From assembly GCF_027023865.1 (NCBI RefSeq), contig NZ_JALVUC010000019.1, positions 236,586 to 300,585 on the forward strand: 64,000 nt of DNA. Reading direction: 5' to 3'. The notes beneath the pieces were generated by a model that was not told where the DNA came from, ran no database searches, and saw only the letters and a list, made by a program, of their open reading frames with translations. This DNA comes from Thermococcus sp. (GTDB taxonomy: Archaea > Methanobacteriota_B > Thermococci > Thermococcales > Thermococcaceae). Each line of letters starts with the position of its first letter. Within the stretch, counting starts at the first letter, position 1. Made by a program: the position numbers and the translations under genes. This document shows, one piece after another, positions 29,673 to 33,519 of the stretch.

Positions 29673-30236
29673 CTATCCTCTCTTCCCATCCAGCCCCATG
29701 AAGTAGACCGTCGCGGGGCAGCCGCTGCACTTCTTGCCGTAGAGGTAGCAGTCGGTGCAGACCTTTCCGCAGGGTGCCTTCTCCCTGACCGGCTCGAGCT
29801 TGAAGTCCACGAACTCAGGATAGGCCGGCGAAGAGCCTATGGAGACGTCCATCTCCTTAACGGCCTCAAGGGGACGAATTGTGTTCTCTATAGTGGCCTC
29901 AAGGACGGAGTGGTTCCCTGCTATGAGAGCCAGGTTGAGGTTGTACTTCCCCGTCGTGGTCGCCACGAAGACCGTCCGGGGGCACCTTGCAAACACGTCC
30001 GCGAGCTTCTCCGCCTCGTCCATGCTCCTCACGCGCAGGTTAACGACGGCAGAGACGAAGTTCCTCTTCTTTATGTTGAGCAGGGCCTGGACCCTCACGT
30101 CGCCGCGCTTCTCCAGCCGTTCAAGCCTCTCCCTCGCCGAGGGGTGGCTTATACCAAGCTCCCTGGCTATCTCGCTCACCTTTGTCCTGCCGTCCTTCCT
30201 CAGCAGGCGGTATATCTTCAGGTTGCGCTCGTCCAT
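29673..30236 (-). CDS. Lrp/AsnC-family regulator with C-terminal Cys cluster
   Basis: N-terminal HTH (DGRTKVSEIARELGIS); tail CGKVCTDCYLYGKKCSGCP. Confidence 0.85.
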   Translation of the reverse strand: MDERNLKIYRLLRKDGRTKVSEIARELGISHPSARERLERLEKRGDVRVQALLNIKKRNFVSAVVNLRVRSMDEAEKLADVFARCPRTVFVATTTGKYNLNLALIAGNHSVLEATIENTIRPLEAVKEMDVSIGSSPAYPEFVDFKLEPVREKAPCGKVCTDCYLYGKKCSGCPATVYFMGLDGKRG

Positions 30237-30328
30237 AGAACCACCTTCATTTTGAAGGTTCTTACCTAAAATTTCTTGGGAAATGAATATAAGAGTTTCG
30301 AGTTCAATCGAAAATCGAGGTGATACAG

Positions 30329-30526
30329 ATGAAGAGGAACGAGGGAACCATTGATAGGGCCATCAGGGTGGTTTTGGGCCTGATCCTGCTCGGCCTCTGG
30401 GCAGTGGACAAGATACCGTACAGGACTGCAACACTGATAGTCGGGCTTGTCGCGTTGATAACCGGACTTACGGGCTTCTGCGCCCTTTACAAAGTTCTCG
30501 GCATAAACACCTGCAAAGAGTGCTGA
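30329..30526 (+). CDS. DUF2892 (YgaP-like) small membrane protein
   Basis: NEGTIDRAIR...TGFCALY..LGINTC. Confidence 0.85.
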   Translation: MKRNEGTIDRAIRVVLGLILLGLWAVDKIPYRTATLIVGLVALITGLTGFCALYKVLGINTCKEC

Positions 30527-30535
30527 GGTGGAAGG

Positions 30536-31159
30536 GTGAAGCGGGTAACCAAAGTGCTCGTAGTCTCCGGTGAACTGCTGATAGCGGTAAGCCTGGTGCT
30601 GATGGCAACGGGGCTGGCGATGAGGGATCCAACGTCGGCCCTCGGATCCCTGATGAGCTATGAAACCGCCAGAAGAGCCCACACCCTGGCAGCGTACCTC
30701 TTCGTACCTCTGTTTTACGTCCACGCCACTGCAGGGCTGTTAATTGCCCTAAACCGCGTCAAGGCGTTCAGAAGCGAGAGAGCACTGAAGGTAGCCCTCG
30801 GAATCTGGACCGCGGTAGTGGCGGGGGTAGTGCTGATGTCGCTGGTCCCTCAGAGCTCCCCGACATTCCCTGGCTCAGTGAGTGCCTCCAACGCCACAAC
30901 CTCCGGAGGACTGACCCTTGCAGAGATGGCAAAGCACAATTCCTCAAGCGACTGCTGGGTCGTTGTCGAGGACGGGATCTACAACGTCACCTCACTGATA
31001 GACACGCACCCCGGCGGCAGGGAGGCGATACTGAAGTACTGCGGCACGAACGCCACCGAGGTCTTTTTCCGTGAACACACACAGAAAGACTATGAAGTCC
31101 TCCAGACGTACTACATAGGGACGATCGGAGAGCCTCTCAACACAACAAAAAACCGGTAG
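30536..31159 (+). CDS. Membrane protein with C-terminal cytochrome b5-like heme-binding domain
   Basis: AKHNSSSDCWVVV...YNVT...HPGG...CGTNAT..F..H; N-terminal TM segment with His pair. Confidence 0.85.
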   Translation: MKRVTKVLVVSGELLIAVSLVLMATGLAMRDPTSALGSLMSYETARRAHTLAAYLFVPLFYVHATAGLLIALNRVKAFRSERALKVALGIWTAVVAGVVLMSLVPQSSPTFPGSVSASNATTSGGLTLAEMAKHNSSSDCWVVVEDGIYNVTSLIDTHPGGREAILKYCGTNATEVFFREHTQKDYEVLQTYYIGTIGEPLNTTKNR

Positions 31160-31180: not shown

Positions 31181-32845
31181 TCAACCGGTTCCGGGGAGTT
31201 CTCCTCCGGAAAAGACCCAAACTCTGACCGTTCTGTCGGCCATAAACGCCGTCTGGCGGAGCGCCACCGTCCCGTCGGTGTTGAGAATCTTGAACGCCAC
31301 TATTTTTACTTCCTTCCCTGTCTGGGGGTTCCTGCCGGTGACGACCTCGATGAAGGCTCTGTTGAGGTAGCTTGGGGCCAGCCTCTCGCCCTCGCTTATC
31401 CCGGATTCGTTGATCAGGACGTTCACGTTGCCCTTCGAGTCCGAGACCACGAACACCCTCACCTCGGCGGAGTAGTCCTTGAGTCCCTCGGCCGGAATAG
31501 GGATGAACGGCCCGGTGCCGAAGTCGGTAACGTTGATGCTCTCAGGGGCCGGAACCTCGGCGAAGGGCTCGCCCCCAAAGGTCTCCCTGAAGATGCCGTT
31601 CAAAAGCGGGCTTACTGTGCACGAGCACGTTGTCTCCACCGGCGTGCTCATCGAGGCTTCGGCGAAAGTTACCGCGTTCTGGAATGCATCCAGTGCCTTC
31701 TTCGCTCTCCTGGTTTCGACCTTCGTTCCGCCCATTCTAACGTTTATGTTGACGAGCTGCTCGGCGAGTTGCTTGAGGTCAGCTTTCATAACAAGGGTCT
31801 GCACCGTGTACTGGCCGGGCATGAGGTAGAGGTCTTCCATAGGGGCGGGGTCGTAGGGGCCCGTATCCGTGGGTTCAAACACGAACGGGGCCACGTTGGG
31901 GGCTGGGCACACGAGGGGCGGGTCGGGTTCCTCGGGTAACAGGGTCATTGTGTTGCTGTCGAGCGGAAGCGGCCGGTAGCAGAAGCCATCGTCGTCCACC
32001 ATTCCAAGAAGGGTCGTGTTGACCGGCGGTATCTGGTAGTAACCGTTCTCGTCGGGCAGAACCTTCACGATGGTCTCCCCGGTGTTCGGGTCAATGAGCC
32101 TTATGGCGCTTGGCTTCCCTTCACCGATGGCCTTTATCCACGCGCCCTTTTTCGCCCCGATTACTCCCGCGATCTGGCCGGCTCCCACGGTTCTCCCGCC
32201 CTCTCTAATGCCCCGGGCGAGGACGCCCCCGGTTCCGACCTGGTAGATCTCGATGATCTCAAGCTCGTAGCCCTTCGTGATGGAGTACATCTTCTCGACC
32301 ATCTGTGGGACGTCCATCCTGGTCGTCTTCCCGTTTCCGGTGTAGAATAAGTCGCCCCTTGGGCTGTAGAAGGCCTCTATCGACTCGCCGGTGGTGGCGT
32401 TCTCCCAGTAAGCCTTCTCGACAGCGCTTATACCGACGGCTGACCTGAGGTTGAGGAGCTCGTAGTACCTCAGTCTGGCGAGGTCGTAGAGCATTGCAGT
32501 CCTCTGCCTGGGGTCTGTTTCTTTATCCGCTTTCTTCCTCAGCTCTTCCGCCTTTGCGTCCCAGTTTGAGAACTCACCATCCTTTATCTCGAAGCCGGTC
32601 TTCTGGAGCTGGGCCTTCGCATCTCCTATCGCGTTATCGTACTGGCCCACGAGGGCCAGGATTTCCTCATCGGTCGCCCTGGGGGGTTCGGTCGCTGTGC
32701 TCTCTGCGGGTGTTCCCGTCGAACTCCCGGTTTCCGGCGACACCGTCCTGGTTACGTTTCCTTGGTCAATACATCCAGATATAAATGCGCCGAGCATCAC
32801 GACACTTAAAAGCAGGGCAAAGCCCGCCAATTTTTTCGCCTTCAT
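31181..32845 (-). CDS. Large lipoprotein of unknown function with HU/IHF-like motifs near the C-terminus
   Basis: Lipobox FISGC, Thr/Ser linker, GRNPQTGKEVKI. Confidence 0.75.
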   Translation of the reverse strand: MKAKKLAGFALLLSVVMLGAFISGCIDQGNVTRTVSPETGSSTGTPAESTATEPPRATDEEILALVGQYDNAIGDAKAQLQKTGFEIKDGEFSNWDAKAEELRKKADKETDPRQRTAMLYDLARLRYYELLNLRSAVGISAVEKAYWENATTGESIEAFYSPRGDLFYTGNGKTTRMDVPQMVEKMYSITKGYELEIIEIYQVGTGGVLARGIREGGRTVGAGQIAGVIGAKKGAWIKAIGEGKPSAIRLIDPNTGETIVKVLPDENGYYQIPPVNTTLLGMVDDDGFCYRPLPLDSNTMTLLPEEPDPPLVCPAPNVAPFVFEPTDTGPYDPAPMEDLYLMPGQYTVQTLVMKADLKQLAEQLVNINVRMGGTKVETRRAKKALDAFQNAVTFAEASMSTPVETTCSCTVSPLLNGIFRETFGGEPFAEVPAPESINVTDFGTGPFIPIPAEGLKDYSAEVRVFVVSDSKGNVNVLINESGISEGERLAPSYLNRAFIEVVTGRNPQTGKEVKIVAFKILNTDGTVALRQTAFMADRTVRVWVFSGGELPGTG

Positions 32846-32961
32846 GCTATCACATCTTTTAGCCACGAGATAGCAAAAAATCGAGAAGAACTCGTCAAGT
32901 GACTTATAGCCAGGGTTAGGCGAGGATGTTATTAACGGTTATGCTTGCAAAGTGGAAAAAA

Positions 32962-33519
32962 TTAATCAAAAACTGCTTCACCCCTAACCGCGACGAGAAC
33001 CGTGAAGGCCATCACCAGGGCTATCTCATAGGTCTCTATCAGCGCCACCGACGGCCAGTTTATGAGTGTCCCCATCACCGCCAGCGCGAAGATAAACCCC
33101 GAACCGTAGCGAACGGTCTTATCCTTTAAACCCGCCCCGTAGACGAGCATCCCCAGGAAGAACTGGACGAAGAAGTAGGTCGAGACGAAGGAGTGTGGCC
33201 TAGTGCCGGCGTGGAAAACCCCTATGAGGGCCAGGAAAAGGGCAGAGATGCTGATGTACGCCCCACCGACCGTCTGGAGCCTGTTCTCCGATGCGAGGAT
33301 GAGGTAAATGGAGAAGACAAGCATAAACACCGCCGTCAAGATGAGGCCGTAGTTGTATATCCACGGCGAGGTGGCCATTTCGAGTGAACCGAGGTCGCTC
33401 AGGGCGTTGTGGAAGAAGGAAAACCACCCGTTACGGCTTATGCTCCAGGCAACGAAGAGCCAGTAGATCAACCCGGCCAGGATTCCGGAGTACTTGAGCG
33501 GCCTCAGCGGGACTTTCAT
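32962..33519 (-). CDS. DUF998 family membrane protein
   Basis: WFSFFHNALSDLG motif; polytopic. Confidence 0.8.
   Translation of the reverse strand: MKVPLRPLKYSGILAGLIYWLFVAWSISRNGWFSFFHNALSDLGSLEMATSPWIYNYGLILTAVFMLVFSIYLILASENRLQTVGGAYISISALFLALIGVFHAGTRPHSFVSTYFFVQFFLGMLVYGAGLKDKTVRYGSGFIFALAVMGTLINWPSVALIETYEIALVMAFTVLVAVRGEAVFD

Follow-up and report, generated by a model that had tools for sequence, protein, structure and literature searches.

Peptide cassettes identical to segments of bacterial EF-Tu, bL12 and HU in a predicted surface lipoprotein of Thermococcus

Introduction

Does a surface lipoprotein of an archaeon carry a bacterial HU domain? The question is raised by a minus-strand gene in a 64,000-nucleotide stretch of Thermococcus sp. 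DNA (the window; contig NZ_JALVUC010000019.1, positions 236,586 to 300,585), the 554-residue product of which was described in the initial annotation, made from the sequence alone, as an exported lipoprotein built on a captured HU fold. The open reading frame, the FISGC lipobox and all of the strings then quoted are present in the sequence in the order given, and the likeness to the HU beta-arm is real, but the HU fold is absent. Because the arm is just one of several short cassettes in the protein, and others come from EF-Tu and bL12, the question moves from an HU domain to a displayed peptide vocabulary.

Results

Segments of EF-Tu, bL12 and HU in the lipoprotein

The gene and the segments of its product discussed below are:

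31181..32845, minus strand: coding sequence of the 554-residue lipoprotein, stop codon included (alternative GTG start at 32866)
32771..32845, minus strand: signal peptide ending in the lipobox FISGC (residues 21-25, 32771-32785), as read from the sequence
32174..32209, minus strand: cassette IREGGRTVGAGQ at residues 213-224, the same letters as in the C-terminal hairpin of EF-Tu of the Bacteroidota type
32069..32095, minus strand: mid-protein hairpin IDPNTGETI, residues 251-259, a native scaffold hairpin
31748..31783, minus strand: cassette ADLKQLAEQLVN at residues 355-366, the same letters as at the bL12 N-terminus
31679..31705, minus strand: cassette AKKALDAFQ, residues 381-389, with weak likeness to HU helix 2
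31301..31339, minus strand: cassette TGRNPQTGKEVKI, residues 503-515, identical to the HU beta-arm; turn of the hairpin 497-521

The island IREGGRTVGAGQ, which the initial annotation had missed, was flagged through searches of the PDB and NCBIfam. In a profile comparison (hhalign) of the lipoprotein family with EF-Tu domain 3, 26 columns around this segment align with an E-value of 3.9e-10; no domain 3 signal is left after removal of the cassette, and residues 140-211 alone give a P-value of 0.7. A wider homology to EF-Tu domain 3, over residues 160-232, was rejected because the signal vanishes once the cassette is cut. In the AlphaFold2 model the segment lies in a loop of low pLDDT (predicted local distance difference test). 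Fragments of EF-Tu, some of them named Chitinophagales or Sphingobacterium, read LLRGIEKTDI(R/K)RGMVI, HTPF(F/H)NKYRPQFY and FAIREGGRTVGAGQ(V/I)T.II.

The string KADLKQLAEQL, earlier taken for an HU/IHF-like signature, is letter-identical to the N-terminus of Bacteroidota-type bL12 and does not correspond to HU helix 1. The cassette ADLKQLAEQLVN is found exactly in the bL12 proteins P0136, P0145 and P0090, with 12-18 of 18 residues exact; three bL12 proteins (Pfam L12_N and L12) start MADLKQLAEQLVNLTVKEV, and the rplL product of locus L012, in a tuf-nusG-rplKAJL operon, starts MADLKEFAEQLVNLSVKEV. There is no Pfam bL12 hit in the lipoprotein, in which 12 residues match rather than a whole domain with hinge and C-terminal domain. 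In the same locus, a 3.26-Mb bacterial contig, tuf is called as two open reading frames of 223 and 160 amino acids (L012 2296-3483), probably an assembly frameshift error.

The extent of this borrowing was delimited by an ungapped-segment scan of 66 cassette-bearing proteins against EF-Tu, HU, bL12, NusG, L11, L10 and L1. Matches fall on three sites of EF-Tu, all in domains 2 and 3, on the arm and the C-terminus of HU and on the N-terminus of bL12; none was found to the EF-Tu G domain, NusG, L11 or L10, and L1 gave a single chance 8-mer (TGKEIKVL). PDB sequence searches with the 20-22-mers ADLK... and IAIKEEGANV... returned nothing relevant. The cassette variants are of the Bacteroidota type (GAGQ, GIEKTDIRRG) in the archaeon, in a metagenome-assembled genome (MAG) of Patescibacteria and in carriers on Proteobacteria-type contigs alike.

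The mid-protein IDPNTGETI, present at residues 251-259 as the initial annotation had it, is read here as a hairpin native to the scaffold. Its region is matched by the CshA-like repeat protein P0044; a repeat match of P0051 was judged to be chance. Judged by sequence and profile comparison, the lipoprotein belongs to none of HU/IHF, EF-Tu domain 3 and bL12, and what it has in common with them is excised segments only.

An HU arm without an HU fold

The HU arm motif R-x-G-R-N-P-x-T-G-x-x-I, with its intercalating proline, is found in TGRNPQTGKEVKI at residues 503-515, and the segment is near-invariant in the main clade of the family and degraded in P0016, P0023, P0027 and P0031. The similarity is beyond chance: BLASTP against E. 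coli HU-beta gives 13 identities in 18 residues over TGRNPQTGKEVKIVAFKI (E 1e-6), and an hhalign comparison of the family alignment A1 with the HU alignment A2 covers 20 columns, those of the arm, with an E-value of 2.5e-8. It also halts there. A forced collinear alignment with full-length HU (greedy hhalign) adds just 1.7 score units beyond the arm; Pfam Bac_DNA_binding scores 11.6 bits against a gathering cutoff of 22.4 bits and covers residues 503-520 only (18 residues); and the NCBIfam HU models match 18-24 residues at about one tenth of their cutoffs (for HU-beta, 18.5 bits versus 157). Of the remaining strings held to be HU/IHF-like signatures in the initial annotation, RAKKALDAF retains a weak likeness to HU helix 2 (region around AKKALDAF, hhalign P 0.0024, probability 12%) and INVTDFGT none (region around residues 437-444, P 0.31).

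The structural comparison agrees. In the AlphaFold2 model of the full-length protein, which is moderate overall (mean pLDDT 58.8) and reaches about 86 around residues 497-521, GRNPQTG forms the turn of an ordinary hairpin within a larger antiparallel sheet, and a Foldseek search of this model against the PDB returned no HU and no match with E<=0.001. A model of the isolated C-terminal domain (alignment A3) had a pLDDT of 39 and was unusable. Furthermore, the C-terminal half (residues 336-554) has an isoelectric point (pI) of 5.07, versus 9.8-10.5 for HU controls. Distant paralogues have a degenerate hairpin (LTLREPTTGEESQV; LTLREPTTGEESQVAFVKLIGIDGKF) at the scaffold position of the arm, and the hairpin is therefore native to the scaffold, its sequence alone having become HU-like in this clade. 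The captured fold proposed initially is thus contradicted by profile, model and charge, and the lipoprotein is not a member of the HU/IHF (DNABII) family.

Two proteins with larger portions of HU were also encountered. P0088 is a whole HU behind a signal peptide of the twin-arginine translocation (Tat) type (RRxxLRRGAIL...), and in P0087 a Sec signal peptide precedes no more of HU than the half with the beta-sheet and the arm; both look like exported bacterial HU derivatives.

Export, family and exchange of cassettes

The reading frame extends over 31181-32866 if counted from the GTG, but the ATG at 32845, giving 554 residues, is the likely start because homologues likewise begin MKAKK. The N-terminus reads MKAKKLAGFALLLSVVMLGAFISGC, and the positions A20, I22, S23, G24 and C25 are near-invariant in A1, with the lipobox kept in 22 of 23 aligned homologues, so that the protein shows the signal peptide and the lipobox with invariant cysteine by which archaeal lipoproteins are recognised. 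Because both are conserved family-wide, the protein is almost certainly surface-anchored, as first proposed, with lipidation predicted. The mature protein is acidic (pI 4.75).

Among 5.8 billion proteins searched there were 31 homologues, all annotated as hypothetical and all from Thermococcus save two from Geoglobus-like archaea, and a six-frame search located the gene in 28 of 99 Thermococcales genomes, where some copies are tandem or fused duplicates and distant paralogues of about 800 amino acids also occur. No Pfam or NCBIfam family covers the lipoprotein or the small cassette proteins described below, and there was no relative among the viral contigs searched. In one fused copy (L016; G083:C1:1503000-1506700) two members form a single open frame of 1126 amino acids, the halves of which differ in their cassettes, the first having TPFHNKYRPQF and GIEKTDIRRG and the second ADLKQLAEQLVSLTVK. 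Another copy (P0021; L014 1558-3222) has the IGDPG(A/V)KQGTKKPS cassette in tandem duplicate, followed by a frameshifted, unrelated C-terminus, and is for this reason probably decaying.

No invariant run in A1 is longer than ADLK.LAEQLVN (11 of 12 columns) and IREGGR (6 of 6), both of which have variable flanks. Other cassettes are replaced or inserted from one member to the next. In P0014, P0015, P0024 and L016 the EF-Tu cassette GIEKTDIRRG stands in place of AKKALDAFQ (TKVETRRAKKALDAFQ in the lipoprotein); P0031 has RTRNPQTGKEI where other members have RLVDPNTGETV, at the position of the IDPNTGETI hairpin; the EF-Tu segment TPFHNKYRPQF is inserted in P0018, P0019 and L016, and other members insert IGDPGVKQGTKKPS (the IGDPGVKQG cassette) or AELGEVEPR. 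A distant paralogue carries VVKFKAGSELAKAVN, the C-terminus of HU. Within its own genome the lipoprotein gene is the sole site of the cassettes. The archaeal and bacterial cassette copies differ at many synonymous sites, which excludes recent DNA transfer or a nucleotide-level element; since the codons differ, selection acts on the peptides. These comparisons show the cassettes, and not the scaffold, as the shared and apparently selected units, exchanged at fixed scaffold positions.

Cassettes in small secreted bacterial proteins

When 1.84 billion representative proteins were searched with the profile of A1, fragments of the family came back together with four unrelated proteins of 93-295 amino acids with signal peptides. 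Each has ADLKQLAEQLVN as well as IREGGRTVGAGQ, exact or with one residue changed, and in three RTGRNPQTGKE is also present; the order varies. Two subsequent word-based searches extended this set to at least about 35 small signal-peptide proteins. Proteins of 260, 295 and 429 amino acids also share the cassettes, again in differing order and with unrelated linkers. In the small proteins, which are Sec-secreted and encoded on Proteobacteria-type contigs, the cassette order is shuffled and the linkers between are unrelated. Their common plan is a signal peptide, then AxA|ADLKQLAEQLVN(LTVKE), variable low-complexity linkers and, optionally, IREGGRTVGAGQ and RTGRNPQTGKEIK(I/V)P; many end in a C-terminal IAI(K/Q)EEGANVKKEKGVEDVE. 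In fact, with few exceptions the cleavage site immediately precedes ADLKQLAEQLVN (AxA|ADLK), which reproduces its N-terminal position in native bL12. Several of these proteins are basic (pI 9-11, net charge up to +11), and one is labelled Alphaproteobacteria.

The 'cassette-bearing secreted proteins' are a group defined by the present analysis, namely proteins with an export signal and at least two shared cassettes separated by unrelated sequence; the lipoprotein falls within it with four (IREGGRTVGAGQ, ADLKQLAEQLVN, AKKALDAFQ and TGRNPQTGKEVKI). A further member is a 429-residue secreted protein of the Patescibacteria MAG, with ADLKQLAEQLVNLTVKEV, AIREGGRTVGAGQ, GRNPQTGKEI, AELGEVEPR and KKALDAFQDA, the last in common with the lipoprotein. 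Cassette proteins are rare there: one clear case was found among 401 Patescibacteria genomes. Scans of genome and metagenome contigs gave at least three useful loci among the matches listed, those on genome contigs being mainly HU and EF-Tu.

The carrier contigs look bacterial, and the cassette genes are found between msrPQ and queA-tgt-yajC-secDF, in a cluster with an extracytoplasmic function (ECF) sigma factor and at a site near groESL. On three independent contigs (L005, L006 and L008) the small gene is directly downstream of msrP-msrQ, which encode a periplasmic methionine-sulfoxide reductase, and upstream of queA-tgt-yajC-secDF. In L009 (1-5798) the cassette protein P0064 is the last of a cluster that encodes a secreted protein, an ECF sigma factor, an anti-sigma-like protein, a subtilase-like protein of 465 amino acids and two small secreted proteins containing cysteine, one of which carries the EF-Tu string GIEKTDIRRGM. 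A lysine-rich small secreted protein on an AT-rich bacterial contig (L013 2713-3096) has the C-terminal cassette KIAIQEEGANVKKEKGVEDVE only, and the tail cassette therefore also travels singly.

Genomic setting of the lipoprotein gene

Upstream of the lipoprotein gene lies a co-directional neighbour:

32962..33519, minus strand: DUF998 membrane-protein gene (Pfam PF06197, E 1e-25)

This gene adjoins the lipoprotein gene in seven of the eight Thermococcales loci checked, and the order DUF998, lipoprotein, cytochrome b5/YgaP, Lrp and onward is shared by seven of the eight genomes. It is not kept in Geoglobus, where the other neighbours differ too and an unrelated membrane protein is encoded upstream. 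Facing the lipoprotein gene in convergent orientation (30320-31159, plus strand) are genes for a YgaP-like small membrane protein (PF11127) and, after it, for a second membrane protein whose C-terminal domain is a cytochrome b5 domain (PF00173, E 1.4e-19), a pair that is syntenic with the lipoprotein gene in other Thermococcus genomes. An Lrp/AsnC-type regulator with a cysteine-rich C-terminal tail (29673-30236, minus strand) adjoins this pair, also in other Thermococcus genomes.

Discussion

Display of mimic motifs

The best reading, which is held tentatively and at somewhat less than an even chance, is that the lipoprotein displays mimic motifs toward a putative partner. The protein is a predicted surface lipoprotein, anchored in the membrane, and its scaffold is restricted to its lineage and without recognisable fold relative. 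In its loops and hairpins are cassettes of 9-18 residues that agree letter for letter with segments of three bacterial proteins of the cytosol, all of them very abundant. In the lipoprotein these are the C-terminal hairpin of EF-Tu, the N-terminal helix of bL12 and the beta-arm of HU, to which relatives add a hairpin of EF-Tu domain 2 and a strand of EF-Tu domain 3, and the distant paralogue the C-terminus of HU. Outside the cell the cassettes would act as short linear motifs imitating loops or termini that EF-Tu, HU and bL12 of bacteria expose, and the lipoprotein may thereby be a ligand, competitor or decoy for an extracellular partner recognising such peptides. Mimicry is favoured because the identity is letter-perfect across domains of life, because the bL12 cassette stands at the mature N-terminus as in bL12 itself, because the bL12 helix is not a nucleic-acid binder, because the cassettes are of one Bacteroidota-like type whatever the host and because the archaeal protein is acidic. 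Also counted in its favour are the observations that each similarity is highly significant and ends at the cassette edge, and that the model places two of the three cassettes in loops of low confidence.

Several observations weigh on the other side. No partner gene is conserved across the Thermococcus, Geoglobus and bacterial loci, the adjacency of DUF998 being confined to Thermococcus; ADLKQLAEQLVN is internal in the archaeal protein and not N-terminal; and the structural model is moderate, as given by its mean pLDDT of 58.8. PDB searches with 20-22-mers gave no parent for AKKALDAFQ, AELGEVEPR, IGDPGVKQG or the C-terminal IAIKEEGANVKKEKGVEDVE, and with these four cassettes lacking an identified parent, the statement that all cassettes mimic housekeeping proteins is an extrapolation. 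Finally, five of the seven assigned cassettes (three of EF-Tu and two of HU) presumably lie in nucleic-acid-contacting parts of their parent proteins, which suits the nucleic-acid rival considered below.

The broader proposal, that Thermococcales, Archaeoglobales, Proteobacteria and Patescibacteria share an extracellular 'mimicry vocabulary', displaying or secreting exact copies of the best-conserved exposed loops and termini of bacterial EF-Tu, HU and bL12 as decoys or signals toward a system that recognises these ubiquitous proteins outside cells, is rather doubtful. Such a system might, for example, sense bacterial lysis, or belong to a predator, toxin or phage-like binder, and the mimicry between microbes would then be of a new class. 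The idea of a sacrificial oxidation target, suggested by msrPQ and peroxiredoxin neighbours, was dropped as unsupported. The EF-Tu peptide FAIREGGRTVGAGVVAK is recorded as a carbonylation cluster (PMC2751825).

Other explanations

The main rival to mimicry, though an unlikely one, is an extracellular nucleic-acid binder, in which the grafted loops would keep their parental roles and capture extracellular DNA or RNA to be taken up, used as nutrient or built into a matrix. In the parent proteins, the arm of HU engages the minor groove of DNA and loops of EF-Tu contact the backbone of aminoacyl-tRNA; the EF-Tu cassettes presumably hold the contact residues for the tRNA 5'-phosphate and T-stem, and the HU cassettes are likewise taken to lie within its DNA-binding part. 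The arm is intact, intercalating proline included, in most family members, but divergent members lack this proline (GRNAVGEE, ARNSTTGEE, GRSAKIGDE). Several of the small proteins are basic, and a fully secreted HU exists (P0088), whereas the archaeal protein is acidic both overall and in its C-terminal half (pI 4.75 and 5.07). Furthermore, the most conserved cassette is the N-terminal helix of bL12, which is not a nucleic-acid-binding element, backbone binding should need less than letter-perfect conservation across domains, and affinity seldom survives the excision of loops from their fold.

Distinctly unlikely is the explanation that the cassettes are structural building blocks, self-contained hairpins and helices spread by recombination or gene conversion, the likeness of which would record origin and not function. 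This would accord with the degenerate hairpins at the same scaffold positions in distant paralogues (LTLREPTTGEESQV; ILGEGRRDVEARAV) and with the HU-arm cassette, which is modelled as a regular strand-turn-strand within a sheet. Structural hairpins tolerate substitution, however, and yet 11 of 12 and 6 of 6 columns are invariant amid variable flanks; the small proteins, moreover, consist mostly of linkers and cassettes, with no fold to stabilise, and just three parent proteins supply cassettes while the control proteins supply none.

It is very improbable that the lipoprotein and the small proteins are peptide precursors, cut by extracellular proteases into cassette signals that would imitate, for instance, the peptide signature of lysed bacteria. 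The small proteins do resemble strings of conserved peptides with variable, often basic or proline-rich linkers, and some loci adjoin ECF sigma or anti-sigma-like genes and serine peptidases, but the cassettes are not bordered by conserved cleavage sites, no receptor or protease gene was found to be a conserved neighbour, and the archaeal cassettes are embedded in a large folded scaffold.

The initial reading of the C-terminal 200 or so residues as a diverged HU/IHF fold with insertions and HU-like DNA binding is largely refuted and hardly credible, since, despite the identity of the arm and the weak collinearity of AKKALDAFQ with HU helix 2 (P 0.0024), the Pfam match is sub-threshold over 18 residues and hhalign halts at the arm, the supposed helix 1 belongs to bL12, the supposed helix 2 is replaced by an EF-Tu cassette in orthologues, the modelled topology is non-HU with no HU found by Foldseek, and the domain is acidic.

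Novelty and meaning

Ten cassette strings were looked for in the full text of 8.4 million papers, and only ordinary EF-Tu and HU peptides came up. Because neither this search nor Pfam or NCBIfam gives a prior description of the cassette pattern, either as a curated family or in a paper, the cassette vocabulary is rated new.

If the cassettes were functional mimics, they would represent an undescribed molecular mimicry among free-living microbes, across the divide between archaea and bacteria, in which fragments of the most abundant and conserved bacterial proteins serve as an extracellular code. They would point to a novel system by which peptides of EF-Tu, HU and bL12 are recognised outside cells within microbial communities, and would explain a 'hypothetical' surface-protein family present in about a quarter of Thermococcales. 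Even if the cassettes just bind nucleic acids, functional loops of 10-20 residues would be excisable from housekeeping proteins, movable between genes and domains of life and strictly selected, which bears on protein evolution and design. There is also a warning for annotation: an HU or EF-Tu hit below threshold in an exported protein can reflect a real cassette and need not imply the parent fold.

Comparison with known systems

The likeness to HU/IHF (DNABII, PF00216) consists of the arm (R)TGRNPQTGKE(I/V)K(I/V), identical over 12-18 residues, and, in the distant paralogue, of the HU C-terminus VVKFKAGSELAKAVN. Unlike HU/IHF, the lipoprotein has no helical body or whole-domain match, is acidic and carries the arm as a hairpin of a larger sheet within 554 residues. 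With exported HU and the extracellular DNABII proteins of biofilm matrices it has in common the occurrence of HU-derived sequence outside the cell (compare P0088 and P0087); these, however, keep all or most of the HU fold, whereas the lipoprotein keeps the arm only.

Family members copy (L)RGIEKTDIRRGM, TPFHNKYRPQF and AIREGGRTVGAGQ(V/I) exactly from domains 2 and 3 of Bacteroidota-type EF-Tu (PF03144, PF03143). In contrast to EF-Tu, the family has no similarity outside the cassettes and no G domain, and is extracellular, and the archaeal host uses aEF1A. In the case of the bL12 N-terminal domain (PF16320), ADLKQLAEQLVN(LTVKEV) corresponds to the first 12-18 residues after the methionine of some bL12 proteins, and in the small secreted proteins ADLKQLAEQLVN is likewise the mature N-terminus; unlike bL12, however, only helix 1 is represented, without the L10-binding hairpin, the hinge or the C-terminal domain.

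The nearest concepts, by analogy only, are the mimicry of short linear motifs by secreted effectors and the housekeeping-derived leader peptides of the NHLP (nitrile hydratase leader peptide) and Nif11 types, in which peptide modules of unrelated cellular proteins are likewise reused as functional units of exported proteins. To our knowledge, those cases concern host-pathogen pairs or maturation operons of ribosomally synthesized and post-translationally modified peptides, whereas the hosts here are free-living archaea and bacteria, the genes are not set among maturase genes and the modules are copies from EF-Tu, HU and bL12.

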